Of a stretch of 64,000 nucleotides of DNA, positions 792 through 40,957 are shown in pieces. The DNA lies in assembly GCF_035084215.1 (NCBI RefSeq), contig NC_090334.1, forward strand, positions 65,720,001-65,784,000. Direction: 5' to 3'. The notes below the pieces were generated by a model, which was not told the origin of the DNA, made no database searches, and saw nothing but the letters and a program-made list of their open reading frames with translations. Source of the stretch: Heptranchias perlo (taxonomy: Eukaryota). The translations under genes and the position numbers were made by a program. The number at the start of each line of letters is the position of its first letter. The stretch's first letter is position 1.

Positions 792-2720
792 AATATGGAA
801 ATGGTTGTAATGAGATGTCCTAAAGAAGAAGTAACGTGTTCCCATCACTATGCAATCCTCATACATAGTTAGTGATATTTATTTACTGTAATGAAGCTTT
901 AGTAATGTTGGCCCTCTAGTACAATGCATATGCTTATCAGCACCTTTTGGTATAACAATAGGATCAAGTGCAATTAATGGTTGAAGAACATGTTTTCTTC
1001 CATTTCTGTTCTGTTCAGTTCAGGGGCACTTAATATTCACTTAAAATAAAGTGGGGCACGAAGGTGAATTTTCCAGGTGTCAGTAAAATTTCTGCCAACT
1101 TTCAACTAGCTGGGAAATAGAAAAAGTGAAGCGGCATCATTGATCTGCAAGAAATATCTGAAAACATTATTTCAAAATACATAAGTATTACTGTATAAAA
1201 CTTGTCAAAGAATAACCGTGAGGGAGTTAAATGTGGAAGTTAGTTTGAAATGATACAACGTTTCATCAACAATGACCCTTTGAAAGTCTCAACGGCAACT
1301 TCCTGATATGGTAAGGTGAAGGTCTGGTCAAGTTTAAGAAGTTTGTGTGCCATTTGACTGGACAGCTGGCATGTTGTGACACCTGAGACCCAGATATGGT
1401 AAAATGTTTAACAATTTGCCTATATTTTTAAATATATGGTTTAACTCACACTGTACAATATTCACAATTGTATCTAGCTGCTGATAGATGGGCCTAAGGT
1501 TCTACTCCTGCATGCTTTGGGACTATGGTAGGAACATGAATGGCTGACACCTGTTCACTCTGACTCATGTGTCTCTTTAACATGTGCTGGTCTTGTGGAG
1601 CATACCTTCATACTACAGATTGCTTTCCATTGCCCAACTCTATGCCCTTGGGTTTGTTTCCCTCATGGATATCTGTTCTGTCTCCATGCCTTGCTCAGTA
1701 ACACTAGATTCCTTGTGCTATACATTGTCATCCTTGAAATCATGGCAGAATGGTAGCCCACGGCCCTTTCTAGTGATGGCAATGTTAGGTAGGTAACCAA
1801 TTTTATCTTGAACATTCCCCTGTCATGCAGAATACCTTCTTCTAGATCCATTGGCTCCTCTGGTTGCCATCCCAGAACCCAGATAGTACTGGTCAGCTCT
1901 GCTAATGGGAGGGAGCAGCGGTCAGGCTTCTCCAGTCTGAACCAGGAGTTCTCAGGATATGGAAGCTTATATATCATATTATCGAATGCTTAATGCTAAT
2001 AGCTGGAGCTGCAATATTTGAAGAAATGGAATATGAGTTTGACAAAACAACCTTACCAGAATCACTGGAGTCAAAGAAAGTGCAGGATCCATGATGTATA
2101 GGTGGAATTAGGAGCCAGCCTTTTTTTCTGCCCACATGGATTGGCTTTTTAACTTTTTTTTTGGTAAAGTATTTTTTTTCTTGTGTGCCACATTATAAAT
2201 TGTTGATGAGCTTTCAAAATCCCTCAGGTGTTTGTGCTGCTTTGGAAGCATTGTTAATATTGTGGTAATAATGTTCTAGCCACATCACACACTGGAGGAA
2301 AGGTGGAAAGGTGATATTGCATTTTAAGTCTTTAACAACTCAGCTCACTCAAATATCACAAAGCAGCGAAGGATTTTGACCTTTCTTCCGCTAGCATTTA
2401 GAAGGCACGATGACTTAGTAGTCAACCAGCCATTATGAAACAACAAAACAAAAGGTTCCTCTCCAGGGAGGAAAAGGAAGCAAAATAAAACTTTTTGTTA
2501 CCTTAGGAAAGTCATGCAAATGGCTCATGCACTTACGGTGATGTACTTATTTGGTTTGCCTTAACCAATTGAATTCCTAGCTCTTCTGCCAGTGTAGTGA
2601 ATTAGTCAACTGGTTGGAATTGATAAAGAACAATCCTCAGGTGGTAACCCCAAGGTTGGTCACAGACTTTGAAGTCTATAACTGTGTGAGTCACAGTTCA
2701 ACCAAATCCAATAATACCTA

Positions 2721-2951
2721 AATTAAAAGCAAAAAACTCCGGATGCTGGAAATCTGAAGTAAAAACAGAAAATGCTGGAAATACACAGCAAGTCACACAG
2801 CATCTGTGAAAAAGAAACAGAGTTAGCGTTTCAGGTCGATGAACCTTCGACGGGTTTGACGAAGGTTCATCGACCTGAAACGTTAACTCTGTTTCTTTCT
2901 CCACAGATGCTGCCTGACTTGCTGAGTATTTCCAACATTTTCTGTTTTACT
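2721..2951. mobile_element. PLE-derived inverted-repeat mini-insertion (family B) with degenerate hammerhead motif
   Basis: Arms ~2756-2849 and 2860-2953, 10-nt spacer, one-sided extension 2724-2755; flanked by tccaataata(c/a)cta at 2707-2720 and 2952-2965; TGACGA-AGGTT-catc-GACCT-GAAA-CGTT motif at 2857-2884. Confidence 0.7.
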
Positions 2952-3146
2952 TCCAATAATAACTAGGTGTGTGTTCTCTTTGTTACACTAGACTGTTCCA
3001 ATGTTATTGCACATTTGGGTCCCGCTACAAGCCCTTTTACCTTGTCAGGAATTGTCCTGCTTACATCAGGGTTTCTTCAGATAAAGAGACCAACTTGCAC
3101 TTCAAACTATTTAAACCATACGTCCAGTGACTGAAACTAAAACCTA

Positions 3147-4808
3147 AGGCAGTTGTTTTTCAGACTGGAGGGAAGTATACAGTGGTGTTCCCCAGGGGTG
3201 GCTATTAGGACCATTGCTCTTTTTGATATATATTAACGGCCTGGACTTGGGTATAGAGGGTATAATTTCAAAGTTTGCAGATGACTCGAAACTCGTGAAT
3301 GTAGTAAACAATATGGAGGATAGTAACAGACTTCAGTAGGACATAGACAGACTGATGAAATGGGCAGACACATGGCAGATGAAACTTAGACCATAAGACC
3401 ATAAGAGATAGGAGCAGGAGTAGGCCATTTGGCCCCTCGAGCCTGCTCCGCCATTTAATGAGATCATGGCTGATCTGATTTTTACCTCAACTCCACTTTC
3501 CCGCCTTTTCCCCATATCCTTTGACTCCCTTGCTGATCAAAAATTTGTCTAACTCATCCTTGAATGTATTCAATGACTCAGCCTCCACAGCTTTTTGAGG
3601 TAAAGAATTCCAAAGATTCACGACCCTCTGGGAGAAGAAATTCCTCCTCATTTCCGTCTTAAACGGGCATCCGCTTATTCTAAGACTATGCCCCCTAGTT
3701 TTAGATTCCCCCATGAGGGGAAACATCCTCTCAGCATCTACCCTATCGAGTCCCCTCAGAATCTTGTATGTTTCAATAATGTCTCCTCTCATTCTTCTAA
3801 ACTCCAATGAGTATAAATCCAAGCTGTTCAATCTTTCCTCATAAGACAACCCTTCCATACCCGGAATCAACCTAGTGAACCTTCTCTGAACTGCCTCCAA
3901 TGCAAGTATGTCCTTTCTTAAATAAGGACACCAGAACTGTACGCAATACTCCAGGTGTGGTCTCACCAGCACCCTGTACAGTTGTAGCATGACTTCCCTG
4001 CTTTTATACTCCATCCCCCTAGAAATAAAGGCCAATACTCCGTTTGCCTTCTAGATTACCTGCTGCACCTGTATGTTGACTTTTTGTGTTTCATGTACTT
4101 AACGCAGAGAAGTGTGAAGTGATTCATTTTGTTCGGAAGAATGAGGACAGGCAATGTGAACTAAATAGTACAATTTTAAAGGGGGTACAGAAACAGAGAG
4201 ACCTGGGGGTGTATGTACACAAATCTTTGAAGATAACAGGACTTTTATAATACACTGGTTAGGCTTCAGCTGGAGTATTGTGTTCAATTCTGGGCACCAC
4301 ACTTTAGGAAGGATGAAAAGGCGAGAGGGTGCAGAAGAGATTTCCTAGAATGGTACCAGGGATGAGGAACTTCAGTTATGTGGAGAGACTGGAGAAGCTG
4401 GGGTTGTTCTCCTTAGAACATAGAATGTTAAGGGGAGAATTGATAAGGTGTTCAAAATCATGAATGGTTTTGACAGAGTAAATAAGGAGAAACTGTTTCC
4501 AGTGGCAGAAGGGTCGGTAACCAAAGGACACAGATTTAACGTGATCAGCAAAAGAGCCAGAGGCGACATGAGAAAACATATTTTTATGCAGTGAGCTGCA
4601 ATGGTCTGGAATGCATTGCCTGAAAAGGTGGTCAAAGCAGATTCAATGGTAACTTTCAAAAGGGAATTGGATAAATACTTGAAGGGAAAAAAATTATAGG
4701 GCTATGGGGAAAGAGCAGGGGAATGGACCTAATTGGATAGCTCTATCAAAGAGCTGGCACAGGCATGATGGGCCAAATGGCCTCCTTCTATGATGTAACA
4801 TACTATGA
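3147..4808 (+). mobile_element. CR1 LINE, 5'-truncated and decayed, interrupted by a younger CR1
   Basis: RT motifs (SGVPQG..LGPLLF, KFADD) at 3180-3290; resumes at 4097 and runs to a CR1 3' UTR ending in ctatga. Confidence 0.85.
3389..4096 (-). mobile_element. CR1 LINE 3' fragment with open ORF2 C-terminus (3487-4035)
   Basis: LYRVLVRPHLEYCVQFW...RRFTRLIPG...FFSQRVVNLWNSLP; (tcttatgg)n tail; TSD actta at 3384-3388 and 4097-4101. Confidence 0.9.
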
Positions 4809-5798
4809 ACATAAGAACATAAGAAATAGGAACAGGAGTAGGCCATACAGCCCCTCGAGCCTGCTCCGCCATTCAATAAGATCATGGCTGATCTTCGACT
4901 TCAACTCCACTTTCCCATCCTCTCTCCATATCCCTTGATTTCCTTGGTGTCCAAAAATCTATTGATTTCAGTTTTGAATGCACTCAATGACTGAGCATCC
5001 ACTGCCTCTGGGGTACAGAATTCCAAAGATTCACAACCCTTTGAATGAAGAAATTTTTCCTCATCTCAGTCCTAAATGGTCGACCCCTTATCTTGAGACT
5101 ATGACCCCTAGTTCTAGACTCTCCAGCCAGGGGAAACAGCCTCTCAGCATCTACCCAGTCAAGCCCTCTAAGAATTTTATATGTTTCAATGAGATCTCTC
5201 ATTCTTCTAAACTCCAGTTAATATAGGCCATTCTACACAATCTCTCCTCGTAGGACAACCCTCTCATCCCTGGAATCAATCTAATGAACCTTTGTTGCAA
5301 CCCCTCTAAGGCAAGTATATCCTTCCTTAGGTAAGGAGACCAAAACTGTACACAGTTCTCCAGATGTGGTCTCACCAGAGCCCTATATAATTGCAGCAAG
5401 ACCTCCTTACTCTTACACTCCAACCCCCTTGCAATAAAAGCCAACATACCATTTGCCTTCCCAATTGCTTGCTGTACCTGCATGTTAACTTTCTGTGATT
5501 CGTGTTTAAGGACACCCAAATCCCTCTGAATACGAACATTTCTTAATCTTTCACCTTTTAAAAAATATTCTGCTTTTCTATTCTTCCTACCAAAGTGGAT
5601 AATTTCACATTTCCCCACATTATACTCCATCTGCCACCTTCTTGCCCACTCACTTAACCTGTCTATATCACTTTGCAGCCCCTTTGTGTCCTCCTCACAG
5701 CTTACTTTCCCACCTAGCTTTGTATCGTCAGCAAACTTGGATACATTATACACGGTCCCCTCATCTAAGTCATTGATATAGATTGTAAACAGCTGAGG
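4809..5798 (-). mobile_element. CR1 LINE 3' fragment (frameshifted ORF2)
   Basis: ORFs 5199-5753 (SKFADDTKLGG...WQMEYNVGKC) and 4984-5202; (ttcttatg)n tail; TSD ctatga at 4803-4808 and 5799-5804. Confidence 0.9.
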
Positions 5799-7254
5799 CT
5801 ATGATACTAAGATAAATCAAAACAGTACTTCTAATGTGCTCTTGTGAAATTAGACAATGGTCGACAGTATGCAACACACTCTCTGCATGGAGTTCAAACA
5901 TGAATAACATCAGAGATATTGCACTTCAATCACGATTAGTCGACATGCCAGGATCAGGAATTATATACGGTGTGATTGACGCCAATAGAAAATTATGTGC
6001 TGCAGTGAAATTATGTGCTTAGGTTAGAATTACGTTCAGAAAAGGAATGCTTTTATCGAGAGTCAATTGTATCAAATCTTTAACATGTATTAAGGCAAAT
6101 AAGGCACCGTCATGTTTGTTTTACTAAGGTTGCAGTTTAAGGCAGGCAGCTGACACAGCTGGGTGAGTTTTTGCTACAAAAATCTTCTCCACATTCAACT
6201 CCTTGCCCTCATTAGAACATTGTTTCCCCCTCACCCCCACCTTGACTTCTATGGTGAGAGAAAATCATTAATATATATTCCAGCAGACTAATTCTTTTTT
6301 TGTGATGCAAAATGGCCTTGAGTCCTACTTTTTATACATCTCATTAAAATGGTACTGTCTTCCTCAAAGAGTCTTTGGCAAATCCTTCTTTATTTATTTC
6401 CAAGCAAATGGTGCAATGTTGTAAATCTCCACCGAACATATTGTATCACTTACGCATGAATTCATGAAGACAAAACTGGGTGTACGTGTCTTCTGGCACT
6501 TTCTCCTCCTCAACTAAAGAAATGTTTTGTCAAATACCTTTTTTTATAAAGACAGTGCCCTTTTAACTCAGTGACATAATACATTGGCTGCTTCAGTTCC
6601 CAGCTTAAGTTAGCCACCAGGCCTGGTGTACGGCTATACCAGTTTGTTTTTGCTCGCTGGGGCTGTTCTTATTCCGTGGATGTCATTTCTGTCTTTTGAA
6701 TGAAATCAGGACTTGGATGGAATTATTATGAGCCACTAGTCTTCAGATAGCATGAGAAGATTTCACTTGTGTGCAGTATGTAACTAAATGATAAACCAGC
6801 TCTTTATAAATGGGTGTAGGATTCTGTTATGCAGAGCGCACAGAGCATATCATGTCCAGCTTGTCTTTTCCCTTGTCACATAATGTGTGCTGGTACGAAC
6901 TTGTCAGTATGACACAGGAACTCCTTCAGGCAATCATCGATCATTTCATACAAGAGAAAATCAGCATATATACATATATGGCCACGTGTCTGGAAAGTGA
7001 CAGTGGAGCTCACGTTCAATTTACCACTTCCAAAGCCAGGCCTCAGCTGATTCACCTCACATCTTCCCACTGCTGATTTTTATAACTTTGGCATTTGTGT
7101 TATGCAGCTGCATTTTGATTTGAATGGAGGATTATACCTCCTTTGCTATGCTGCACATTTCTACTGGGCCACCAGACTCGAACATCAGACCCCAGTGCTG
7201 TTGAATTTGGCCACACTGCCTAATTCTTATTCCGGTTATTAGCTCAGACGCCAT

Positions 7255-7438
7255 GGGGGTAATTTTGTTGGTGCGATAGTGTAAAACAGGTGATAGTGAG
7301 CTGGCAGCCCATTTTACATCTCTCCCGATTTTTAATTCCTTTGAAGTCAGTAGAAATGAATATCAGGAGAGATGTAAAACGGGCTGTCAATTCACTACTG
7401 CCCGTTTTATACTATCACGCAAAGTCAAAGTTACCCCT
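7255..7438. mobile_element. Fold-back MITE, probably PIF/Harbinger type
   Basis: Imperfect palindrome gggggtaatttt...aaagttacccct; 3-bp TSD cat on both sides; a related half-copy lies at ~55140-55253. Confidence 0.7.
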
Positions 7439-7726
7439 CATTAGTTATATGATCAATTTGTTTTTACTAAATTGCGCACTGAACACTTACACTTCCAGTA
7501 CCAACATTTTGTCATTGTAAACTATAGAGGGGGATTGGCTGCTCATTATATGCGTGTGCCCAAAGTGAAAATATCTCCATGTAGTTCACTTTTCATTGTA
7601 TTATTTTTGATTTTTGCTTGTTTCACATCAGGCCATTTGGATACAATATAATCAGTGAGATATAACTGAACGAGTACGATAAAGATTATAGCAACTCGGA
7701 AAATAAAGTTAAATAACATCCATTGT

Positions 7727-8588
7727 ATCCCGAATATACTCGGGGCCATGAAGAGAGCGGGGGTGGGGGGAGGGTGGGAGGGCTGGATTTCCGGACGGGA
7801 AACCTGGAAGTTTAGGCTTCCCGAGCGCCTGACGATTTTGACATCAGGACGTCTTTTAAATTCTTTCAGCAGGTTTCCCGCCCCGAGAGGCAGCATGATT
7901 GACGGGCTGGCTGCCTGTTTAGATGGGAAAGAGGCCAGGGAGAGGATGCTAAGTAAGTGGGACGTTGTGGGGGGGGGGCGGTTGGGGCCGGTCATCGGGA
8001 GGAGGGGTTGGTCATCGGAGGGTGGGGGTCAGAGATCGAGTGGGGGTCGGTCATCGGTGGGGGGGGGGTCGGAGATCATTGGGGAGATAGGAGATTGTGG
8101 GGAGTGGTCGGAGATCGTGGGGGGATGATCAGGCATGGCAGGGGGTGTCGGAGATCATGGGGGGGGTCAGACATTGAGGAGGGTGTGGGGGATCGGCCTA
8201 TCGCATGTGTGGGATCACGGTTGGTGAGCTTGTTGGGCCTGGAAGGTGCACTCCAGCTCCTCCAGGCCTACAAGCAGTGCAATAAAGGCACTTACCAGTT
8301 GATCCGGGCCGGCCGTCTCGCCTCCTCTTATGTGGCGAGAATCAGAAGGCCTGGGAATCCCGGCCCGTAGGAATTAAAAATTTAAAAATTATTAGAATGG
8401 AGGCCCGCAGCCTCCTTAAAAGATTTTACTGACCAACCCGCCTCCTGAAAGTGGATTGGTCACCGGCTCCCCGCCTGTCTCCGTTAAAACTGGAAGTGGA
8501 CGGGTTGGGATCGGGTTTTACATTTTTACAATTTTTACTTTGCCACCCGCCCCCAACCCACCCGTCTTTGGGAGGTAAAATTACCCCC
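7727..8588 (+). mobile_element. GC-rich non-autonomous DNA transposon (Harbinger-like termini)
   Basis: Ends ggtaaaattaccccc; colinear similarity to 9641-10287, 31901-32525 and inverted 54206-54926; internal G-rich ggagatcg repeats. Confidence 0.65.
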
Positions 8589-9640
8589 ATTGTATCACTA
8601 ACACATGAATTCATGTGTGTGTGTGTTTCCTGGCTCTCTCTCCTCCTCAACAAAAGAAATTCTTTGACAAATGCCTTTAAAAAGATGTAATATGAGGTGC
8701 CGGACTACATCCATGGAATCAAAGGTAGTGACCTACTTATGCTAGTTTATTTTTACCAATGGTGCTCCTTTCAGTTTAGCAAATCCTTCAATGCACACAA
8801 CTACAACTCAAATAATATTGGCAACCATTGATCACTTAACACAGGCAAGGGCATAATGGATAGAACAGCCTCATTCTGTGTTAAATGATTTTATACCTTA
8901 GGCAATACAATGAGCTTTCTGTCATTATTTTATATGTCTATGACTATTACAGTTGCTTACAGTTAAATTGAGCGGAGTTGACAATGTTTTACTTTTAGGG
9001 CCCCGAAGTCTAAGTCTCCAAACTTCATGTGTAGTTTCAAAGATATGTTCCACACATAGATTAGACATGGTTTTGTTAGCTTACATCAAGCGCATAAATA
9101 TGTAAGCTTTTAAGAACAACTGTTTCAGGCTTTCATCCCTGTATTCTTTTTGAAAGGCCCATGTGGACATAAGATTGATTCATATCATGCTCTTAGAGCA
9201 CGCTGCTAGTGTTTTAATCCGTTTACTGTCTGCCTAATACTGCAGGCACCTGCTTTATCTCTAAAGGGGCACTCAGCCTCTCCGACTTTCTCACAGACAC
9301 ATCAGTTTCACAGTTCTCATGCCTCCTGATCGTTTAACGTCAGCTGTTATCACAGACATTAGCTGAAATAAGACTGTGAAAAATGTTTTCAGACAAAGAT
9401 TTCTCAGACGGAGAGACACACACGAGAAACAACCAGGCCCATTAAATACTGATTTCTTCCTTGTTGTATTTTAAAAATAAATAATGACACTCTCAGTGTT
9501 TGCATGGCAACACTTCCACTGTATCTGAACATACTGATTATACATTTTAAGGGTTCTTTCTGAAGGGGATTGCCATCATGGTAAAGCGACCTGCAAGAGG
9601 GCACGAAAACATGATCCGATTAAATCAGTGTGTTTCACAT

Positions 9641-10287
9641 GGGGCTCAATTTTAAAACGGAGCCGGGAAAGGGGTGGGGGTCAAAATGAGGTCGGGAAAC
9701 CCATTAATACGGGTTTCCCGAAGTCCTTACGATTTTGACGTAAGGACGTCTTTCATTTTTTTTGTTGGTTTCCCGCCCAACCGATTGGATCAGGGGTCAT
9801 CAAGGGGTCCGCGATCGTCGAGGGGAGGATCGGGGTTGGAGGTCGGGATCGGAGGGGTCCGCAATCGGGAGCCGGGGGTCCGCGATTGGGGGTTGGGGGT
9901 CTGGGATCATTGAGGGGTCGGTGCAGGTAGGCTTGTTGGGCCTGGGGGAAGCACTCCTGCTCTCTTCCGGGCCCACAAGCTGTGCCTTTCTGGGCACCTA
10001 CCTGTTAGTCTCGGGCCTTCTCACCTCCTTTCATGAGGCTTAAAACAGAAGGCCCATGAATCCCGGCCCCCGGGGTTGAAATCGGGAATTGGAGAAAAAT
10101 GGAGGCCTGAAGCCTCCTTGAAAGGTTTTAAGGCCCGACCCGCCTCCTGGGAGCGGGTTGGTCGTCCGCTCCTCTTTCCGCCCCGGTGAAAACCAGAAAT
10201 GGGCAGGTTGGAGGTGGGTCAGAAATGGTGGCAATTTTCAATGCCCCGCCTCCAACCCACTAGTTTTTTACTTTAAAAATTGAGCCT
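9641..10287 (+). mobile_element. Non-autonomous DNA transposon with TIRs
   Basis: TIRs ggggctcaattttaaaa / tttaaaaattgagcc; internal similarity to 7727-8588. Confidence 0.7.
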
Positions 10288-11012: not shown

Positions 11013-11055
11013 AGTTCACCTGAGGAAGGGGGAAGCCTCCGAAAGCTTGTGAATT
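11013..11055 (+). ncRNA. Minimal type I hammerhead ribozyme-like motif
   Basis: AGUUCAC-CUGAGGA-A-GGGGG-aag-CCUCC-GAAA-GC-UU-GUGAAUU; stems I and II can pair. Confidence 0.6.
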
Positions 11056-11104
11056 TAAAATAAAATTGCTGGACTATAACTTGGTGTTGTAAAATTGTTT
11101 ACAA
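11013..11104 (+). mobile_element. PLE (family A) 3'-terminal fragment with hammerhead motif
   Basis: Near-identical to the reverse complement of 16196-16285; ends at ...tgtttacaa like the other copies. Confidence 0.85.
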
Positions 11105-11769: not shown

Positions 11770-13182
11770 ATTTTACCTGCAGAGATAGGTGCCAGGAATT
11801 TTCTCAGAACTGCTCGCTGTCTGCTGCCGTAACTTTGGCTGAAGCCCAGTTTACGTATGTAAATATGGTTTCCATCGCACTCTCAGCAAAGTTACATCGG
11901 TGGTGCATGAGCAGGTCTGAAGAAATTTCCAGACGGAGTCTAAACTGGAAGTGTCTGTCCCGCCCACTTTTTAAATTTTTCTCTTTAAAAATGAATCAGT
12001 TGAGTAAGAAAAATGGAGACTTTGACATCGCCATGATTAAGGGGCTAAAATACAATATAATTGCACCCATTTAGAAAAAGTACAGCAGAATAGCAAATAC
12101 AAGTATTGAATAACATTTGAAAGCACCAACTGAAGGAAATCCTCTCCTGCAATGGGCAAAAGTGCATGATTAACTGATTTCTGTGTGAGCTCAGGCATGT
12201 ACATTTAGAAATGCATTATCTTTATTTTGACCTCGTGGATCTTTCCTAAAGAATGTATTTGCCTGTTCCTTTTAAACCAATAACCTGTGTTAATTTAATG
12301 CATTCATAGTTTCTTTTCATTTATACATAAAATGATATCAGCTGTTGTTATATTAATGTCTCTACAATAGTTCATAAAGTAAATTAGCTTAACATTTTCT
12401 GAGGTAAACTTTATATATAAATTATGCTGCATATTTAAACTATACTTTAAACTTGAACATTTGCTTCATAGGAAAATAGTTGAAGCTTCTTAATTCGGCA
12501 AATTAAATAATTAGCTGATAATCATGACTGAACACTGAAACTGATTATTAGACTTCAGCAAAGTGTGTTCGTACGCAGAGCAACCACACACGCAGATATA
12601 TATAAATATAAAAATATATATTCCTCGCCTAACTTTAGTTTATGTCACAGAATACATTTCATAGCACTTTGTTTATTTTCTCTTAAATTGAAGCTTTTCT
12701 GTAGCCTGTCTCCCCCATGGAGATCACTGCAGAAATCTCAGAGGTGTTAAAAAACCGAGTATAGGTCAAAAATTGCTTGTTGGTTTTGATCTCCTGATGA
12801 TGCAATGATTGACAGGCTGGCTGTCTGCCGCACAGAAACAACTGAAAGGGAGCATTTGACAGAATGTCAAAACTTCGTGGCTCTGTACAGTTTTTAACCA
12901 TTTTCTCCTCCATGTCGGAAAATGATGTTATAGTTCCACAGTCGTTATGTAAAATAAAGTTGCAATCAAGAAGATCAACCGTGTTAAATGGTGCAGCAAC
13001 TTAGTTCGAATCAAGCAGGCAAATGTCAGGTCTGTTGGGAGCTCATGTATCGATGTATATTTAAAAATGGCTGCCCTCGAATAAAGATTTTCCAAATTCA
13101 CACATTTTCTCAGAGAATCTCAGAGGCTGTTTAGAAATTGTTATTCACACAAATAACATACAGCTCTTCAGTAAGTATAAGT

Positions 13183-13271
13183 TTTAGTGAAGGGTCTCCA
13201 ACTGAAACCTGAAGCTGTCTTTTCTCTTTCAGATGCTGGTTACTTCCAGAATTTTATTTTTTTTATTTTCA
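13183..13271 (+). mobile_element. Degenerate single arm of a PLE family B terminus
   Basis: gtgaagggtctccaactgaaacc...tctttctctttcagatgctg resembles 2860-2950. Confidence 0.45.
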
Positions 13272-13444
13272 ACTGTTACCAATAAATGTTGCTCATCCAG
13301 TCAGATTTGTATTGGGAGGCCAGATGACAGAGAGGTAGGAGAGTCGAGAGAATACAGAGGAGACCAGGTCCTCAGGAGAGCAGAAGACCGGATCCAAGGC
13401 AACGGTAATAAGGAGCACAAAACTCTAGCTCCCAGCAATGCTCA

Positions 13445-14049: not shown

Positions 14050-14912
14050 ACAGGGGAGAGAATAGAGGCTGGGATGGAAACGTGACAGGGTAGAATGGGG
14101 GTTGGGACGGAAACGTGGCAGGGTAGAATGGGGGTTGAGGCAGAACGTGACAGGGTAGAATGGGGGTTGGGGCAGAACGTGACAGGGTAGAATAGGGGTT
14201 GGGGCAGGAACGTGACAGGGTAGAATAGGGGTTGGGGCAGGAACGTGACAGGGTAGAATAGGGGTTGGGGCAGGAACGTGACAGGGTAGAATAGGGGTTG
14301 GGGCAGAACGTGACAGGGTAGAATAGGGGTTGGGGCAGGAACGTGACAGGGTAGAATAGGGGTTGGGGCAGAACGTGACAGGGTAGAATGGGGGTTGGGA
14401 CGGAAACGTGACAGGGTAGAATGGGGGTTGAGGCAGAACGTGACAGGGTAGAATGGGGGTTGGGGCAGAACGTGACAGGGTAGAATGGGGGTTGGGGCAG
14501 AACGTGACAGGGTAGAATAGGGGTTGGGGCAGGAACATGACAGGGTAGAATAGGGGTTGGGGCAGGAACGTGACAGGGTAGAATAGGGGTTGGGGCAGGA
14601 ACGTGACAGGGTAGAATAGGGGTTGGGGCAGGAACGTGACAGGGTAGAATAGGGGTTGGGGCAGAACGTGACAGGGTAGAATAGGGGTTGGGGCAGGAAC
14701 GTGACAGGGTAGAATAGGGGTTGGGGCAGAACGTGACAGGGTAGAATAGGGGCTGGGACAGAAACGTGGCAGGGTAGAATAGGGGCTGGGGCAGAACGTG
14801 ACAGGGTAGAATAGGGGCTGGGGCAGAACGTGACAGGGTAGAATAGGGGCTGAGGCAGGATTGTGATGGGGTAGAATAGGGGTTGGGGCAGGAACGTGCT
14901 TGGGCAGGGGTA
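14050..14912 (+). repeat. G-rich minisatellite, 32/33-bp unit, about 26 copies
   Basis: Unit gtgacagggtagaat(a/g)ggggttggggcag(g)aac. Confidence 0.95.
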
Positions 14913-16080: not shown

Positions 16081-16244
16081 TTTTGTACATTCATTTCCTT
16101 CTGAAACCTAAAGGTTTTTAAAACCCAAGCTTGCCAGCGTCTAACAGTACTTCTTAATTTAGCTCATCTTTTCTCCTGCTCCCTTCAATATCAATTGTAA
16201 ACAATTTTACAACACCAAGTTATAGTCCAGCAATTTTATTTTAA

Positions 16245-16285
16245 ATTCACAAGCTTTCGGAGACTTCCTCCTTCCTCAGGTAAAT
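16245..16285 (-). ncRNA. Minimal hammerhead ribozyme-like motif in the PLE 3' terminus
   Basis: AUUUAC-CUGAGGA-A-GGAGG-aag-UCUCC-GAAA-GC-UU-GUGAAU, in the same sense as the PLE ORF. Confidence 0.65.
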
Positions 16286-16530
16286 GTTTCAGGAGCTCCT
16301 TGAAGCCTACGCATTTATACATATAGAACAATACATGGTGTTTACAGACTGCCCCTGCAACTGCCCGTTGCCAAGGCAATCACCGTGTTCAGACAGAGAG
16401 GTGTCACCTGCAGAACCCCCGAATACACATTCAACAAAAAAACAAACAGGGAAAAAAAAAACAGAGAAAAAAAACAGAGAGAGGCAGAAACATCCGGAAG
16501 GCAGAGAGAGCCAGCAAATGACCCATTATA

Positions 16531-18031
16531 TTAAAAACAGATAACATTTGTTCGCTGGTGGGGTAACGTGTAGCGTGACATGAACCCAAGATCCCGGTTG
16601 AGGCCGTCCTCATGGGTGCGGAACTTGGCTATCAATTTCTGCTCGACGATTTTGCGTTGTCGTGTGTCTCGAAGGCCGCCTTGGAGTACGCTTACCCGAA
16701 GGTCGGTGGATGAATGTCCATGACTGCTGAAGTGTTCCCCGACTGGGAGGGAACCCTCCTGTTTGGCGATTGTTGCGCGGTGTCCGTTCATCCGTTGTCG
16801 CAGCGTCTGCATGGTCTCGCCAATGTACCATGCTCTGGGGCATCCTGTCCTGCAACGTATGAGGTAGACAACGTTGGCCGAGTCACAGGAGTATGAACCA
16901 TGCACCTGGTGGGTGGTGTCCTCTCGTGTGATGGTGGTATCTGTGTCGATGATCTGGCATGTCTTGCAGAGGTTACCGTGGCAGGGTTGTGTGGCGTCGT
17001 GGACGCTGTTCTCTTGAAAGCTAGGTAATTTGCTGCGAACGATGGTCTGTTTGAGGTTGGGTGGCTGTTTAAAGGCGAGTAGTGGAGGTGTGGGGATGGC
17101 CATAGCGAGGTGTTTGTCCTCATTGATGACATGTTGAAGGCTGCGGAGAACATGGCGTAGTTTCTCCGCTCCGGGGAAGTACTGGACGACAAAGGGTACT
17201 CTGTTGGTTGCGTCCCGTGTTAGTCTCCTGAGGAGGTCTATGCGATTTTTTGCTGTGGCCCGTCGGAACTGTCGATCGATGAGTCGAGCGTCATATCCCG
17301 TTCTTACTAGGGCGTCTTTCAGCGTCTGTAGGTGTCCATCGCGTTCCTCCTCGTCTGAGCAGACCCTGTGTATTCGCAGGGCCTGTCCATAGGGGATGGC
17401 CTCTTTGACGTGGTTAGGGTGGAAGCTGGAAAAGTGGAGCATCGTGAGGTTGTCCGTGGGCTTGCGGTAGAGTGAGGTGCTGAGGTGCCCGTCTTTGATG
17501 GAGATTCGTGTGTCCAAGAAAGAAACTGATTCTGAGGAGTAGTCCATGGTGAGCTTGATGGTGGGATGGAACTTGTTGATGTTATCGTGTAGTCTCTTTA
17601 GTGATTCCTTGCCGTGGGTCCATAGAAAGAAAATGTCGTCGATGTATCTGGTGTATAGTGTTGGTTGGAGGTCTTGTGCAGTGAAGAAGTCCTGCTCGAA
17701 CTTGTGCATGAAAATGTTGGCGTATTGGGGTGCGAATTTGGTCCCCATGGCTGTTCCGTGTGTTTGGGTAAAGAACTGGTTATCGAAGGTGAAGACATTG
17801 TGATCCAGGATGAAGCGGATGAGTTGTAGGATGGCTTCCGGAGATTGGCTGTTGTTGGTGTTGAGTATTGATGCTGTCGCAGCGATGCCGTCATCGTGGG
17901 GGATACTGGTGTATAGTGCCGAGACGTCCATCGTGGTGAGAAGTGTTCCTGGTTCAACTGGTCCGTGGGTACTGAGTTTTTGTAGGAAGTCTGTAGTGTC
18001 GCGACAGAAGCTGGGGGTTCCCTGTACGATG
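16531..18031 (-). CDS. PLE polyprotein (partial): reverse transcriptase plus GIY-YIG endonuclease, Neptune-like Cys linker
   Basis: About 500 codons with no stop: TMDVSALYTSIP, GTAMGTKFAPQYA, RYIDD, FLD, LYRKPT; linker CHGNLCKTC; VVYLIRC..C...YIGET..R...H, E...GLN. Confidence 0.9.
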
Positions 18032-18742
18032 TCAATATCAGTGGTGCCCTGCACCATGGGCTTCTGCCTAGGCTTAGGAATTTAAAAATATAGCAATTGC
18101 CTAGGGACGGATCTCAGAATATAAAGACACGGTCTCTTTCTATTTAAAAACCCTTTTCTTTCAAACGTACTTCTCCGGTTAGTAGCGCTAAAGAACTAAC
18201 CACCCCATTCCGCCTACACAGAGTTTTTTTTCCCCCATCAAAGAGCAATACTGTTTGTTTTTAAAACTCTGTCAAAACATAATAATGCCTGTCAGTCATG
18301 CCTACACCACAGCTGTGACTTGCGTTATGGGGCACTGCAGCTTTAAGCTAAAAACCTGCCTTCTAAAAATAATAATTAGAAGATGCCTAATCTAAACTGA
18401 TCGCTCCAGGTATTTACAGGCCACTGACAGGAGTAATAAACTGTATTTTGTGAGACATTTTAAAGCATACTGTTTGTTTTTTTTTGGTCAAAGCAACGCT
18501 GACACTCGAAAAATATTTCCTACAATTATTTCCGAGTTAATTGCTCAGGCACCAACCTAAAAGTACAAATGATTAGTTTTGGAAGATTAATCGAATAATA
18601 AACATGGGCAAAAATGGAAGGCCCAATTGAGGTTTCACCTCCTACTCTGCGACAATCTTCTGATCTCTTCAACTTATGGTCGATACTTTGGTCAGATAAA
18701 ACTTTTGGCGTAAGAGGTCATAGAATGACTGCACCAAACGTG

Positions 18743-23750: not shown

Positions 23751-23874
23751 CTACTTGTTCGAGGTACTGGAGTGAGAGACCAGCATCTGCAGAAGCAACA
23801 AGGAGTTATGACCTCCAAGGGAAAAGGGGACGGGGAAAAAGATAACCACATGCCCAAGAAAAGAAAAAGAATGA

Positions 23875-24003
23875 AACCAAAGCAAAATACTGCAGATGAT
23901 GGAAATCTGAAATAAAAACAAAATATGCTGGAAACATTTTCTGTTTCCCTCTCCACACGTGCTGCCTGACCTGCTGAGTCTTTCCAGCATTTTCTGTTTC
24001 TAT
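23875..24003. mobile_element. PLE family B mini-insertion with collapsed centre
   Basis: Same ends as 2721-2951 but the central hammerhead part is missing; 16-bp TSD aaaagaaaaagaatga at 23859-23874 and 24004-24019. Confidence 0.75.
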
Positions 24004-24398
24004 AAAAGAAAAAGAATGATCTATAAAGTGATTAAGTGGAAAACAGCAGATAATTAAATAACAGGTGTGATAATAACGTATGACAAAAGGAGGCACGATG
24101 AGAGAAATTAGAGAAATAAAAAGACATATACAAGACCCAGAGGATGTGGTGAATGGTTAAAGCAGAATAGCAGAGGGGGAGGGAAGGGAGGGAAGCATGG
24201 AAAAGCTAGCAAAGCGGAGTAGGATCCAGTGGCCTGAGAGTGTGGTGAAAGAAAAGGGCAGGTAAACCCCAGGGGTGCCAGCCACATTGTCGGGCGTGTA
24301 TCGATAAGGGATCTCAATCCCAAGCAGCAGCGTTCCCTGTCCCTGGATGATCTGAGATCGAAATTCATAATATATTAAAATGACATTACAAACCTTAT

Positions 24399-27977: not shown

Positions 27978-28092
27978 ACTGAATTGCTTTGAAATGCAGT
28001 GACTGTTGTTATACCATAAGCCATTTTCTACACGAAGAGTTGCACAAACAGCAATGAGATGATTGACCAGTTAATCTGCTATTGGTAGAGGA

Positions 28093-28169
28093 TTGTAAAC
28101 AATTTTACAACACCAAGTTAAAATTGTTTACAATTGTCAACCCCAGTCCATCACCGGCATCTCCACATC
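28093..28169. mobile_element. PLE family A mini-insertion, collapsed palindrome plus tail
   Basis: Same start (ttgtaaacaatttt) and tail (gtcaaccccagtccatcaccggcatctccacat) as 37805-38039; 12-bp TSD attggtagagga at 28081-28092 and 28170-28181. Confidence 0.85.
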
Positions 28170-28489
28170 ATTGGTAGAGGAAGGAATGCTGTTCATGACT
28201 CCTTGAGAACTCCTTGCTCTTCCTGAAATAGTGCCTTTATAATCTTGAGCGTCCTCATGAATTGTTAAAATAGACCTTGGTTTAAGATCTCATCTGAAGG
28301 GCAGCACCTCTGACAACATGCCACTTGTTTGCTACTGTGATGTAGTGTTGACCTAAATTATGTCTTGATGAAAAGCCCAGAGCCTTTGATCCGGAGGCCA
28401 GAGGGCTACCAATTGAGTCAAGCTTACATTAAAGCTATTAATAGCATTTATACTACAGTAAAGAAAGCCACACTTCCCATAATTCATGT

Positions 28490-31900: not shown

Positions 31901-32525
31901 AGGGGATTCTACAGCCCCCATATTTACGGGAAGGCAGGAAGGGTGCGGGGAGCGAGTCTAAAACGCGGAAAGCCCCAGGACGCGATTTGGCAGGACCTCA
32001 CTAACATTAGATTGACAGGCTGGCCAGCCGTCAGCGGGAAAATCAACGGCAGGAGGCCACAGCTGGGGACTGTAGGGGATTGGGGCTTGGTGGGGGGGTG
32101 TGAGTCAGAGTCCGGCAGCGAGGGGAGGCCACAATCGATAGAACGGAGGCCGAAGGCTTCCTTGAGGGGCCAAGGGGAGCAATCCTGCTCCTTCTGGTCC
32201 ACAAGGAGTGCTATTAAAAGCACTAACCTGCTGGAGCCAGCAGCAACCATCTCCATTTTGCTGCTGGGTTTCCCGCACCCTGGGAAACCTAGCTGGCAAC
32301 TGTTAAATTTAAATCAGGCTCCCAGCTGCACCGTGAGAGCCTGATTTAAATATGATAATGAAGTGTCCCACCTCTCCAAAACGGAAGACTCACGCAGCAT
32401 GCAAACCGCGGACGTAAAAATGGCGGCAGGGACGCGTTTCCCGATTTTTAATTTTTAACCCCCCCTCCATCCACAACACACTCCCGCCCGTCGTGCAGGG
32501 GTGTGGGTGGTTAATATCATGGCCT
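31901..32525 (+). mobile_element. GC-rich non-autonomous DNA transposon (relative of 7727-8588)
   Basis: Shared blocks gattgacaggctggc, ctgctccttctggtccacaagg, aaagcactaacctg, ttttaatttttaacccc. Confidence 0.55.
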
Positions 32526-35250: not shown

Positions 35251-37804
35251 ACATTGTTTGTCTCCTTTCTGCTTTTTGCTACTTTTCTCCAATACTCTGC
35301 CTTAGCTTTTTTAATCCCCATCATTGTCGCTTTCCCATCATTTAAGGCCCTAAATTTTCACAGGGCCAGTGGCGTACACCCACTAAGGAAGTCGGCTAGG
35401 AATGCAGCATTGCCTCTAGAAAAATTGGCTAGAATCCGGATATGTCAGGTCTGAATCCACACAATGAGTTTCCATTGGGTCCTGTTTAGGGCAGGACCTC
35501 TGCCTGCATCAAATGTGGTCCATTACATTGGAGGGGGAAGGGGAGGAGCAGGGGCCAGGACCGGGGCCGAGGGAGGGAATTCCCATGCCAGGAATTACCG
35601 CAGCCCTGGCCTTCCTAACACCAATGACTAGATGCCGAGATGAACCAGACGTATAGGTCTACTCAGTAGTGCAAATGGGGCCCACCTAGGGGTCCAGGCC
35701 TGAATCCTGCCCTACCCCTAATCAAAATCCACCTCCGTTTTCACTATTGGCCTCCTTATAAAGGGGCCCAATTGAGAATGCACAAAAGGTGCTGGCACAT
35801 CAACAGATAGCATGCTGGCACTGCCTTCCCTACCCCTCTCCCTGTAGCTCAAGACGCATTAACAGTGACCCAGGTTTCCACCAATTCCAAACAATTTAGG
35901 TGACCTTCATGATCCACTCTGGTAGGATCAGGAGCAAAGGTAACTGACATCCACTCGATTGCAATTCTGCTGGCAGAACGAGATTGAAATTTTCTACCCC
36001 TTTATAATTATGATCTGCTCTGTGAGTGTTAAATGCCACTCTGTCCATTTTCAAATTGATCAAACGTTTTGACACATTCCCTTCATTCTTTACTGGAGTA
36101 CACTTGATTTGTATATTTTCCATCTGTGGGTTAAATATCTCCCATTTGCTCATCCACGGTTATATTTGCCAATTTTATTTTCCATTTTATTTCACTATAT
36201 TTAGCTTTCATCCAGCCATGTCCTCAACTTTTCTTTTCCCTCTTTATTCTTATGCTGATCCTATTTATATTGTGGTCACTATTTTCCAATTGTTCTCCTA
36301 TCTTGTGGTCACCCACTTGCTCTGTTTCATTACCCGGAACCAGGTCAGGCAATGCTTCCTTCCTTGTTAGAGCAGTAACATAATGACTAAGAACACTGTC
36401 CTGAACACACTGCAAACTACCTCCCCTTTCTCACCACATTTTCCTTATACCAGTCTTTTTTTTGGATTGTAAAAATTTCCTACAGTGGAGGGAAGTTAAT
36501 GGTGAGGGAGAGGCTTGGTCTCCAGTGAAAAAATAATATCTGTGCTGATTGGAGCTGCCCCCATGTTGGGCCGGAGTGAAGTGATGGGAGGAGGTATTGG
36601 TTTGTGATGTGTTTATTTTCTCTTCCATATAAATAAACCTCTACTGTTAATACATGCCTCTCTAATTTATGCCTCAGGTCATCTTCTGCTGAAAGCCTCA
36701 TCCATTTTTTTGTTACCTCTAGACTTGACTATTCCAATGCTCTCCTGGCCAGCCTCCCACCTTACACCCTCCATAAACTTGAGTTCATCCAAAACTCTGC
36801 TGCCCATATCCTAACTCGCACAAAGTCCCGTTCACCCATCACCCCTGTGCTCGTTGACCTATATTGGCTCATGGTCCAGCAACGCTTCGAATTTAAAATT
36901 CGCATCTTCATTTTCAAATCCCTCCATGGCCTCGCTCCTCCCTATCTCTGTAACCGCCTGCAGCCTTACAACCCTCTGAGATCTCTGCGCTCCTCCAATT
37001 CTGGCCTCTTGCTTATCCATGATTTTACTCACTGCACCATTAGCATGCGTGCCTTCTGCTGCCTTGGCCCTAAGCTCTGGAATTTCCTCCCTAAGCCATC
37101 CACCTCTCCACCTCTCTCTCCTTCTTTAAGACGCTCCTAAAAAACTTACCTTTTTGAGCAAGCTTTTGATCACCTGTCCTAATATCTCCTTACGTGGCTC
37201 AGTGTCAAAATGTGTTTGATAACGATCCTATAGAATCATAGAAAGGTTACAGCCTGGAAGGAGGCCATTCGGCCCATCAAATCTATGCCGGCTTTCTGCA
37301 AGAGCAATCCAGCTAGTCCCGCTCCCCCGCCTATCCCCATAGCCCTGCGATTTTTTTCCTTTCAAGTACTTATCCAGTTCCCTTTTGAAAGCCATAATTG
37401 AATTTGCCTCCACCGCCCCCTCAGGCAGTGCATTCCAGATCCTAACCACTCGCTGTGTAAAAAGGTTTTTCCTCATGTCACCTTTGTTTCTTTTGCCAGT
37501 CACCTTAACTCTATATCCTCTGGATCTTTACCCTTCTGTCAATGGGAACAGTTTCTCTCTATCTACTCTGTCTGGACCCTTCATGATTTTTAATACTTCT
37601 ATCAAATCTCCTCGCAACCGTCTCTGTTCCAAGGAGAACAACCCCAGCTTCTCCAGTCTATCCACGTGACTAAAGTCCCGCATCCCTGGAATCAATCTAG
37701 TAAATCTCTTCTGCAGCCTCTCCAAAGCCTTCACATCTTTCCTAAAGTATGGTGTCCAGAACTGGACACAATACTCCAGCTGTGGCCAAACCAATGTTTT
37801 ATAA

Positions 37805-38039
37805 TTGTAAACAATTTTACAACACCAAGTTATAGTCCAGCAATTTTATTTTAAATTCACAAGCTTTCGGAGATTTTCTCCTTCCTCAGGCAAATGTTTC
37901 AAGATCTTGAAACATTTGCCTGAGGAAGGAGAAAATCTCCGAAAGCTTGTGAATTTAAAATAAAATTGCTGGACTATAACTTGGTGTTGTAAAATTGTTT
38001 ACAATTGTCAACCCCAGTCCATCACCGGCATCTCCACAT
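37805..38039. mobile_element. PLE family A mini-insertion: perfect palindrome plus tail
   Basis: 37803-38006 is self-complementary around aga|tct; tail to 38039; 12-bp TSD aatgttttataa at 37793-37804 and 38040-38051. Confidence 0.9.
37914..37954 (+). ncRNA. Minimal hammerhead ribozyme-like motif (mirror copy 37855-37895 on the minus strand)
   Basis: AUUUGC-CUGAGGA-A-GGAGA-aaa-UCUCC-GAAA-GC-UU-GUGAAU. Confidence 0.6.
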
Positions 38040-40957
38040 AATGTTTTATAAAGTTTCATCATGACTTCCTTGCTTTTGTACTCCATGACTCTATTTATAA
38101 AGCCCAGGATCCCTCATGCTTTTTTAATTGCTTTCTCAACCTGTCCTGTCACCTTCAACGATTTGTGCACATATACCCCCAGATCTCTCTATTCCTGCAC
38201 CCCTTTTAGAATTGTGCCCTTTAGTTTATATTGTCTCTCCTCATTCTTCCTACCGAAATGTATCACTTCGTATTTTTCTGCGTCAAATTTCATCTGCCAC
38301 GTGGCCGCCCATGCCACCAGCCTGTCTATTTCATCTTGAAGTCCATCACTATCCTCCTCGCTGTTCACTACACTCCCAAGTTTTGTGTCATCTGCAAATT
38401 TGGAAATTACACCCAAGTTCAAGTCATTAATATATATCAAGAAAAACAGTGGTCCTAGTGCTGACCCCTGGGGAACACCACAGCACATCTCCCTCCAGTC
38501 CGAAAAACAACTGTTCACCATTATTCTCCATTTCCTGTTCCTTAGCCAATTCTGTACGCATGCTGCTACTACTCCTTTTATTCGATGGGCTTCAATCTTG
38601 ATTATAAGCCTATTATGCGGCACTTTATCAAACGCCTTTTGAAAGTCCATATACACCACATCAACTGCATTGACTTCATCGACTCTCTCTGTTACCTCAT
38701 CAAAAAACTCTATCAAGTTAGTTAAACACGATTTGCCTTTTACAAATCTGTGCTGGCTTTCCCTAATCAATCCACACTTGTCCAAGTGATTGCTAACTCT
38801 GTCCCGGATTATCGTTTCTAAAAGTTTCCCCACCACTGAGGTTAAACTGACTGGACTATAGTTGCTGGATTTATCCTTACACCCTTTTTTGAACAATATT
38901 TGCAATTCTCCAGTCCTCTGGCACCACCCCCGTATCTAAGGATGTTTGGAAGATTATGGCCAGTACCTCCGCAATTTTCACCCTTACTTCCCTCAGCAAC
39001 CTAGGGTGCATCCCATCTGGACTGGGTGACATATATACGTTAAGTACAGCGAGACTGTCTAGTGCCTCCTCTTCATCAATTTGTAGCCCATCTAGTACCT
39101 CAACTACATCGTCCTTTACTAAGACCCTGGCAGCATCTTCTTCTTTGGAAAAGACACATGCAAAATACTCATTTAGTACCTCAACCATGCCTCTGCCTCC
39201 TTTTTGGTCTCTAATAGGCTCCACCCCTCCTCTTACTACCAGTTTACTGTTTTAATGCCTGTAGAAGACTTTTGGTCTATGAAACACCTTGGGACCTTTT
39301 ACGATGTTGAAGGTGAGATAGAAATGCAAGTTGTTGATGTATATAAAATTAATCCTCAGTTTCCTTTCCACTGTTCAGCATTCTATAATATCTTCCAAAT
39401 AATGGTGGCTAATCCTTTGCTATTTCTTAGCTCAATCGAAGGGATTTTGTATGGCCCACTTCTCTATTTGAAGCCTTATGCCCTAGTGATATGGTAATAT
39501 CTCTGATTAATAACATTCCTTCCTTATTGAGCTAATTGTAATATTGAAAGGCAGCCCATGCATGCTGGTAACGCAGCCTCAGTTTTGTTCCATAAATTGC
39601 CCATAGAAAATGGAGGGTCCCACGAATCAGTCACGGGAGGTTTTACACCTAAATTTCTGGCTCCTGCCCTCTGCTTGAGAGGCCCCAAGCTACCTGAAGG
39701 CTTTGTACAATCGGCCCTTTGGAGTTCACTTTCCCTTCCAAGCTGTTCACTCTCCTCTCCTGACTTTCTCCTCCCCTGCCAAGTTAGTTTAAAATTTAAA
39801 GCAGGCAATTTGTGGAATCGCATGCAGGCCAATAATTCATCCTGCTTGATAATTACATCCTTAAGCAAAAAAACAAGATTACTATTGTACCTGGGAACCC
39901 TGTCACAATATAGTGAACATACATTTACTGCCACTTAGAATGCCCATTTGCTCACATTTTCTGACTCATTTTCAAAAGGCACTCCTGGAAACATACATAG
40001 GATTTTATTTTGCAAAAATCAATTACTGAGGAACAATTTTCAGACACTAATAGAAATTTGCCGGGCGTGATTTTCTAAATCTGCCTTTCTATTTTCTGCG
40101 TTTACAACAGTTAGACTCATGTTGAAGCAGAAATTGATTTTTCTAGTTTGATTCCAACTGTTGTCCACGCATTAAACTAAAATTCAGAAAAATAATGGCC
40201 AGAGAATTTCTATTAGGAACTGCAAATTGTTCCCCAGTCACTGCTTTGATCAAATCCCTTTCCTTTTACCAGGGACACCTTTTTGAAGATAGGTGCAAAA
40301 ATGTGGATAAATGCTGCATTTAGACTGGGACTGATTGCAGATTGATACCGTTCTCCACCCGAAAAAAGGGCACAAAGCATACCAATTTATCAGTGGAATG
40401 GCCTGCTTCTAACCTATGTATGTGTTTGTTCCACTGCTAAATTCCTGGGGCCTTTTTTGAAGGCAGCCCGAGCGGATGAGTGGGGCAGGTGTCGAGCTTG
40501 CCCCATTGGATTCGTCAGGGGGGCCCAGGACCGGCCAATTACAGGTAAGTTTGAAAATTATTCTTTTTTAAACCATTCTGTGGAGCCAGGAGCAGCAAGA
40601 GTGCTAATTGAATATGTAAATTAGGGGCTAACGCCTGTTAAAGGACCCCTTTGAGAAATTAGTCCACGAATGCTCAGTATTCTTCAGCGATTTCCCCTGT
40701 GGCTGCCAACAAAACGTAAGTGTGCAGACGGGAAGCAGATGCTGTTCAGTGTTTTCTTTTCATTCATTCTCGGGATGTGGGCATCTCTTGCAGGGCTGGC
40801 ATTTGTTGCCCATCCCTAGTTGCCCCGAGAACTATTTTCCTGAATCGCTGTAATCCGTGCTGGGAAAGTGAGCAGTTTGAGACAACTGAGTGGCTTGCTG
40901 GGGCAGTTAAGAGTCTTTGGTGCAGGACTGAAGTCACACATAGGCCAGACTGGGTAA

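Follow-up and report, generated by a model that had tools for sequence, protein, structure and literature searches.

Four short inserts with a common layout

We analyzed a 64,000-nucleotide stretch of the shark Heptranchias perlo (NCBI RefSeq assembly GCF_035084215.1, contig NC_090334.1, positions 65,720,001 to 65,784,000, forward strand), hereafter the window, with regard to short insertions related to Penelope-like elements (PLEs). The window is repeat-rich shark DNA, in which we observed four short non-coding inserts of 77–235 bp, each with target-site duplications (TSDs) abutting both ends. Two inserts (A1 and A2) belong to one sequence family, A, and two (B1 and B2) to another, B; no shared sequence was detectable between the families. 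Their parts are listed below, with positions counted from the first letter of the window.

2707..2720, no strand: B1 left TSD, 14 bp, one mismatch to the right copy
2721..2757, minus strand: B1 tail, 37 nt, matching the B2 tail region at 49/56 positions
2758..2851, minus strand: B1 tailed arm, 92–94 nt
2852..2951, plus strand: B1 untailed arm, 94–100 nt, starting with a putative damaged minimal hammerhead (2857–2884)
2952..2965, no strand: B1 right TSD, 14 bp
23859..23874, no strand: B2 left TSD, 16 bp
23875..23911, minus strand: B2 tail, 37 nt
23912..23934, minus strand: B2 tailed arm, 23 nt
23931..24003, plus strand: B2 untailed arm, 64–73 nt, with a 4-nt arm overlap if it starts at 23931
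24004..24019, no strand: B2 right TSD, 16 bp
28081..28092, no strand: A1 left TSD, 12 bp, within an older dispersed repeat
28093..28120, minus strand: A1 untailed arm, 28 nt, identical to the end of the coding copy described below
28119..28133, plus strand: A1 tailed arm, 15 nt, overlapping the untailed arm by 2 nt
28134..28169, plus strand: A1 tail, 36 nt, of which 35 nt are identical to the A2 tail
28170..28181, no strand: A1 right TSD, 12 bp
37793..37804, no strand: A2 left TSD, 12 bp, within a CR1-type long interspersed element (LINE) copy
37805..37904, minus strand: A2 untailed arm, 100 nt, hammerhead at 37861–37889
37905..38004, plus strand: A2 tailed arm, 100 nt, identical to the untailed arm, hammerhead at 37920–37948
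38005..38039, plus strand: A2 tail, 35 nt
38040..38051, no strand: A2 right TSD, 12 bp

The original prediction, which had been made from the letters alone, placed four inserts of a common layout at these positions, with TSDs of 14 (one mismatch), 16, 12, and 12 bp, and this was borne out. It had also described an extension of 30–35 nt on one arm; the one-sidedness was confirmed, but the tails measured 35, 36, 37, and 37 nt. Likewise, the terminal segment was present in both orientations as predicted, although the two arms were unequal in A1 and B2, about equal in B1, and equal only in A2.

The family A arms point outward with their 3′ ends, and the truncated 5′ ends meet in the center, that is, head to head. 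At the outer ends of each insert, one 3′ end lies at a fixed site and the other 35–37 nt further, the latter forming the tail. The untailed end fell on the same base in all four family A copies of the window and within ~2 nt in both B copies, indicating that it is a defined start site and not a truncation. In 4/4 inserts, the untailed arm was at least as long as the tailed one (28/15 nt in A1, 64–73/23 nt in B2, 94–100/92–94 nt in B1, and 100/100 nt in A2). Simple fold-back of a cDNA initiated at the tail, which was one of the origins suggested beforehand, was thus contradicted by A1 and B2, where the untailed arm is the longer one. Furthermore, the junction differed in every copy, with overlaps of 2 nt in A1 and possibly 4 nt in B2, indicating that the inserts are independent integration products rather than copies of one hairpin element. 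The A2 arms join without a spacer, and positions 2852–2857 of B1 can be read either as a spacer or as a stem-I strand. The AT content of the TSDs was 58–92%, and no nick-site consensus was seen among five events beyond A/T richness.

The inserts are true insertions

The flanking duplications were compared with those at 2949 random window loci of the same lengths, allowing 6 bp of slack at each boundary. An exact repeat of at least 12 bp occurred at 1/2949 loci, and a repeat of at least 14 bp with up to one mismatch at none of the 2949. Paralogous copies of the host repeats in the window served as a proxy for empty sites of A1 and A2; B1, B2, and the coding copy had no such proxy. All four aligned CR1-type paralogues of the A2 site lacked the insert, and the gap of 247 columns corresponded exactly to the insert plus one TSD. 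Similarly, 4/4 aligned copies of the repeat hosting A1 lacked the insert, with a gap of ~81 columns versus 89 expected, the host copies being diverged. We concluded that the inserts are true insertions.

A sensitive search of the window returned four family A copies, namely the two hairpin-tail inserts, the coding copy, and a single arm at 11015–11104, and three family B copies, namely the two hairpin-tail inserts and one weak, decayed arm. The hairpin-tail form therefore makes up 2/4 A copies and 2/3 B copies. The single arms are as follows.

11015..11104, plus strand: A0, a single untailed family A 3′ end with a hammerhead, whose upstream sequence is unlike that of the coding copy
~13180..13275, plus strand: decayed single family-B-like arm (weak; nhmmer E 0.027)

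No TSD was found for A0, and no inverted partner was seen for the decayed arm. Upstream of its hammerhead A0 differs from the coding copy, yet a 10-bp palindrome lies just before stem I; A0 is possibly a second subfamily or a retrozyme-like monomer. Three other palindromes (7256–7437, 40016–40247, and 63592–63813) were excluded from the class, having no A or B match, no hammerhead motif, and no flanking repeat >8 bp. Bacterial and archaeal genomes were scanned for stray shark sequence; the four matches comprised only a 20–23 nt motif and compared with ~2 expected by chance.

Family A derives from an endonuclease-containing PLE

Family A includes one copy with an open reading frame (ORF), hereafter the ORF copy.

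16185..16193, no strand: left TSD of the ORF copy, 9 bp, exact
16194..18031, minus strand: ORF copy, a 5′-truncated, apparently Neptune-type PLE with part of the reverse transcriptase (RT), a CX4CxxC linker, and GIY-YIG
18032..18040, no strand: right TSD of the ORF copy, 9 bp, exact match to the left one

The coding part is the minus-strand ORF at 16531–18030, the 3′ untranslated region carries a minimal hammerhead at 16251–16279, and the copy has an untailed 3′ end without an inverted piece. The best relative of the ORF was an H. perlo protein (93% identity over 487 aa), followed by proteins of other sharks and turtles. An RVT_1 domain was detected (E 4e-10), and the C-terminal 149 aa matched GIY-YIG with E 2.7e-4 and 21.6 bits, just under the curated cut-off of 22.6; the same domain, PF01541, was present in relatives of the ORF. 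Inspection of the translation revealed a CCHH motif, VVYLIRCRTGCPRAWYIGET and then two conserved histidines, and, before the endonuclease, the linker CHGNLCKTC, which fits CX2-5CxxC. A CCHH motif whose two cysteines lie between GIY and YIG occurs in endonuclease-containing PLEs, and the CX2-5CxxC linker is a mark of the Neptune and Nematis clades (Craig 2021, PMC8557442; this and the other cited papers were available in part, and statements about them refer to the available text). Family A is, on these motifs, an endonuclease-containing PLE, apparently of the Neptune/Nematis type as read from the linker. A PDB sequence search returned nothing significant.

As predicted, the family A arms match the 3′ terminus of this element, with differences at 2/86 positions in the terminal 86 nt. 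Because the ORF on the minus strand fixes the polarity, the arm termini are the 3′ ends of the element. The family A inserts are securely PLE-derived. Within its last 347 nt, the ORF copy contains a single perfect zero-loop palindrome with 5-bp arms, and this is where A2 turns. When 120 listed relatives of family A were compared with the window by tblastn, none matched an arm or a tail credibly, and an ORF start within the repeat was not supported.

A minimal type I hammerhead lies ~60–90 nt from the family A end, its motif pattern giving four matches in the window versus 0.01 expected. It consists of the core, a bulged base, stem II, GAAA, a G-C closing pair, palindromic closing bases, and stem I; the bulged base, the G-C closing pair, and the palindromic closing bases are listed for PLE hammerheads (Cervera and de la Pena 2014, PMC4209133). 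An Rfam scan of the window reported no hammerhead, and folding z-scores of the family A hammerhead were unremarkable. In the folded RNA, base pairs form around the inner end between the A tail and the arm (z −2.79; 2/200 shuffles), which lends indirect support to a tail that would continue the pseudo-long terminal repeat in tandem or full-length copies; the family B end showed no comparable tail-arm signal (z 0.15). Rfam microRNA (miRNA) hits were generic hairpins far below threshold, with A2 scoring against plant miRNA models.

The inserts had also been interpreted beforehand as a non-autonomous hairpin element mobilized by the RT/GIY-YIG protein of a PLE. Such an element would be transcribed and re-mobilized as a unit, in the manner of a short interspersed element (SINE) or a retrozyme, which we consider extremely unlikely here. 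PLE-derived non-autonomous retrozymes are described in vertebrates, including a chondrichthyan, in the accessible part of the literature, and PLE pseudo-long terminal repeats (pLTRs) act in trans (Arkhipova 2013, PMC3846280). However, no two copies had a common junction or length (two copies per family), and the outer untailed end is exact and not eroded, although in a hairpin transcript this would be the 5′ end, which is prone to erosion. Moreover, retrozymes as described in that literature are direct tandem repeats, not inverted ones. A non-LTR retrozyme itself, made of direct tandem units each with a hammerhead, was ruled out by the inverted arms, and no tandem array occurs at these loci.

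Family B has the same layout and recurs in other sharks

Family B likewise shows a one-sided tail, inverted arms, and a variable long TSD. The hammerhead-like motif in B1 (2857–2884) lacks the first core C; its pattern, which was written after the site had been seen, gave one match versus 0.01 expected. The assignment of family B to PLEs had initially been made from layout and hammerhead; the layout stood, whereas the hammerhead proved damaged, and an RT/GIY-YIG link was sought in three protein searches without being found. In the first, a peptide profile against longer proteins gave two hits among 248 candidates, a CR1-like protein and a host-gene model. In the second, RT/GIY-YIG domains accompanied family B peptides in 0/22 hits from the representative library, such a protein search being a weak proxy for genomic adjacency. 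In the third, the upstream part of one family B hit was searched for a PLE ORF (0/73 candidates). From the layout and the damaged hammerhead, we infer that family B is probably PLE-derived.

Alternatively, family B might be a miniature inverted-repeat transposable element (MITE) or another DNA transposon with terminal inverted repeats (TIRs), or a SINE/LINE fragment, an origin that we consider very unlikely. It would agree with the finding of no RT or GIY-YIG attached to B sequence and with a sole B hammerhead that is missing a core base and is not reported by Rfam. Unlike in TIR elements, however, the TSDs are long and unequal (14 and 16 bp), the tail is one-sided, and the center is variable; no B match to window LINE or SINE copies was found, and the palindromic closing bases characteristic of PLEs are present in the hammerhead-like motif. 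For the inserts as a class, a MITE or TIR DNA transposon, with symmetrical TIRs and a short fixed TSD, did not fit the one-sided tail and the variable 12–16 bp TSD.

Family B was also sought outside the window. Four window peptides, all in a single open frame, were combined into a profile that retrieved 24 proteins, two in the search of longer proteins and 22 in the representative library; P0124 and P0142 were dropped as chance repeats. In 5/22 outside records, an antisense-arm peptide lay upstream of a sense-arm peptide with a score above the maximum of 30 shuffles, clearly in P0132, P0138, P0139, and P0140 and narrowly in P0129. P0134 gave a marginal downstream match. These records are spurious ORFs reading through B hairpins. 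Three hits could be assigned to a species: the two in the search of longer proteins to Heterodontus francisci, and one of the 10/22 representative-library hits that were looked up to Scyliorhinus torazame. Since B peptides and the antisense-then-sense order occur in outside shark records, family B is a shark-wide dispersed repeat and its head-to-head layout is recurrent. The untailed arm was the longer one in P0138 and P0129, and the tailed arm apparently in P0140, although these read-through peptides are frameshifted and imprecise.

In the two family B inserts, a single reading frame remains open over most of the arm and tail (2850–2951, 2726–2830, and 23876–24003). Peptides derived from B were observed as spurious exons in gene models of sharks, among them an RNF14 isoform (proteins P0121, P0122, and P0126).

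A proposed double-priming mechanism

Overall, the original prediction was partly supported: a PLE-derived family A and stereotyped truncated products in two unrelated families held, whereas the hairpin element and the simple fold-back did not. We propose that the inserts are extremely 5′-truncated PLE integration products made by priming at both ends, a reading that we regard as evenly poised between right and wrong. The element protein would nick the two target strands 9–16 bp apart, and each free 3′-OH would prime reverse transcription of the element RNA. Priming at an inner start site would generate the untailed end, and priming at an outer start site, 35–37 nt downstream, would generate the tail. 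Both cDNAs would stall early; their 3′ ends would then anneal at a short complementary patch or a natural palindrome and extend on each other. Gap filling would create the TSD, and the product would be two copies joined head to head, with their 3′ ends at the two boundaries.

The insertion itself, the TSDs, the head-to-head geometry, the fixed untailed end, the variable junction, and the PLE origin of family A are shown by the sequence data. In vitro, the protein of an anole PLE cuts both target strands and extends them, uses two internal start sites bounding the tail, and is a predicted dimer (Frangieh 2024, PMC11167929); the proposal joins these findings with the anatomy of the shark inserts. 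We infer that two primings took place in one event and that the products were joined by annealing. Both directions of arm asymmetry in the outside peptides (P0138 and P0129 versus P0140) are allowed by two independent primers. More tentatively, and somewhat short of an even chance, a large share of shark PLE insertions may be double-primed scars, in which a dimer would prime from both nicks with one subunit per start site, the tail and the inversion being one reaction.

Several points weigh against double priming. There are only four events, two of which are clearly asymmetric, and the asymmetry of B1 depends on counting the 6-nt spacer as element sequence. Later loss of the palindrome center could also give short unequal arms, so that the reaction may not be reflected in arm lengths. 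Both A2 arms carry the same two differences from the ORF copy, as arm-to-arm copying would give, and the B2 junction is readable as a local snap-back, with 23935–23947 repeating 23988–24000 exactly. Primer-template complementarity at the untailed ends was 0–3 nt, which is near chance in AT-rich targets. In addition, the element studied in vitro belongs to the Poseidon clade, whereas family A appears to be of the Neptune type, and the peptide evidence on asymmetry carries the frameshifts and imprecision noted above.

The main rival, which is possible though on the unlikely side, is self-priming followed by endonuclease resolution. A strand would fold at a palindrome or microhomology and copy itself to the tail end, the GIY-YIG endonuclease would cut the template arm back to the inner site, and insertion of the hairpin at a staggered cut would follow. 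Palindromes at head-to-head junctions have been read as self-priming (Arkhipova 2013, PMC3846280), and the tail has been ascribed to resolution mediated by the endonuclease (Craig 2021, PMC8557442). The turn of A2 at a natural palindrome and its identical arms agree with this route, and trimming of the template arm predicts a tailed arm no longer than the untailed one, matching 4/4 inserts. However, A1 offers just a 2-nt overlap for priming, P0140 appears, imprecisely, to have the longer tailed arm, and both tail boundaries act as RT start sites in vitro (Frangieh 2024, PMC11167929). Untailed ends are also found on copies without an inverted arm, namely the ORF copy and A0.

Another explanation places the short, unequal arms after insertion: longer inverted-pLTR inserts would have lost the middle of their palindrome by microhomology-mediated deletion, and size and asymmetry would be post-insertional. 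Inverted PLE structures of considerable length, with TSDs and microhomology deletions, have been described (Arkhipova 2013, PMC3846280), and the 2–4 nt junction overlaps fit slippage. Nevertheless, we consider such a collapse unlikely; A1 and A2 are young, with arms and tails that match one another or the ORF copy perfectly, but already short, and A2 is a perfect palindrome without a spacer. Deletion rarely leaves a spacer-free perfect palindrome. Furthermore, a collapse leaves the two 3′ ends themselves unexplained.

Implications

The origin of the PLE inverted repeats and of the one-sided tail is called unresolved in the available text of three papers (Frangieh 2024, PMC11167929; Craig 2021, PMC8557442; Arkhipova 2013, PMC3846280). 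The mini-inserts keep only two ends and a junction between clean TSDs and thus offer a countable trace of this integration step; therefore, double priming can be told apart from fold-back without experiment by tabulating, for many copies, how unequal the arms are, how far they overlap at the junction, and where one arm differs from the other. They may record how a PLE copies into both cut DNA strands. If the inserts are double-primed scars, hairpin-tail inserts may recur every few tens of kb in two families (four were present in 64 kb), and they would make the second-strand step of Penelope transposition readable on a genome scale. Double priming could also explain unclassified hairpin-plus-tail repeats in other vertebrates. 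In practice, annotation would mistake the inserts for MITEs or miRNA hairpins, and family B arms enter gene models of sharks as spurious N-terminal exons.

Other repeats in the window

At 59700–62952, a DDE_Tnp_4 ORF on the plus strand faces a Myb/SANT-like ORF on the minus strand, forming a decayed PIF/Harbinger-type DNA transposon. The palindromic element at 63592–63813 has 76-bp arms at 91% with ~70 nt between them; it is unrelated to A and B, has no long TSD, and is MITE-like. Two copies of another palindromic repeat family lie at 7256–7437 and 55150–55250 and gave weak miRNA-model scores, and an old imperfect palindrome with 68–74% arm complementarity and no second copy in the window lies at 40009–40254. 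A G-rich minisatellite occupies 14079–14898 (33-bp unit, ~25 copies at 94%). A tRNA-like match on the minus strand at 43053–43130 (Rfam 36.9 bits), not called by ARAGORN, is probably a SINE head. Nested and rearranged CR1-type LINE fragments in both orientations were found at 3150–5800, 22164–23389, 37230–38935, and 40956–42800, A2 lying inside one of them. An unclassified GC-rich dispersed repeat family with short internal inverted repeats has at least four copies (8228–8590, 9931–10268, 32161–32241, and 54200–54900).

Comparison with known systems

Twin priming of L1 resembles the proposed mechanism in that a second nick primes a second cDNA and the two are joined by microhomology, which results in an inversion. 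In L1, however, both primers act on one RNA at non-overlapping places, whereas in the shark inserts two fixed start sites would each yield a copy of the same terminal sequence. Vertebrate entries in repeat libraries include palindromic Penelope fragments.

Inverted-pLTR insertions have been described for Pen2/Pen2a of Adineta vaga, with an optional 31-bp tail and 8–10 bp TSDs (Arkhipova 2013, PMC3846280), and Penelope of D. virilis has a 34–37 bp repeat and inverted termini (Schostak 2008, PMC2377424); a general scheme of inverted-pLTR insertions with a tail has also been given (Craig 2021, PMC8557442). As far as the available text describes them, such insertions have in common with the shark inserts the head-to-head 3′ ends, a 30–40 bp tail at one end, a TSD, and a junction palindrome. 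The published ones, however, frame an ORF or a partial tandem and have arms of ~180–220 bp or more and TSDs of 8–10 bp, whereas the shark inserts consist of two ends only, with no ORF, arms of 15–100 bp, and TSDs of 12–16 bp.

The Poseidon element PAc of Anolis carolinensis is similar in that two 3′ ends are separated by a tail, targets are AT-rich, and a hammerhead lies upstream (Frangieh 2024, PMC11167929). The start region lies within a stem-loop in PAc, as it appears to in shark family A. PAc belongs to the Penelope/Poseidon clade, whereas family A has a Neptune/Nematis-type linker, and no inverted genomic product is derived from the two start sites in the available text of that study. In Schistosoma mansoni, pairs of PLE minimal hammerheads on opposite strands, 100–700 bp apart and without an ORF, have been noted (Cervera and de la Pena 2014, PMC4209133). 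A2 and B1 are likely objects of this kind, although the S. mansoni pairs are reported in one sentence without an analysis of tail, TSD, or junction. Non-LTR retrozymes (Li 2026, bioRxiv 10.64898/2026.07.22.740005) are likewise short, non-coding, and PLE-derived, with a type I hammerhead; they are described as direct tandem arrays or monomers of a fixed unit, whereas the shark inserts are inverted with variable junctions. In the mostly open-access literature that we searched, no description of ORF-less two-ended shark mini-inserts and no double-priming model for PLEs was found. The layout of inverted pLTR, tail, and TSD is already published, and the shark inserts are best filed as the short extreme of this known form of Penelope insertion, occurring in two shark families.

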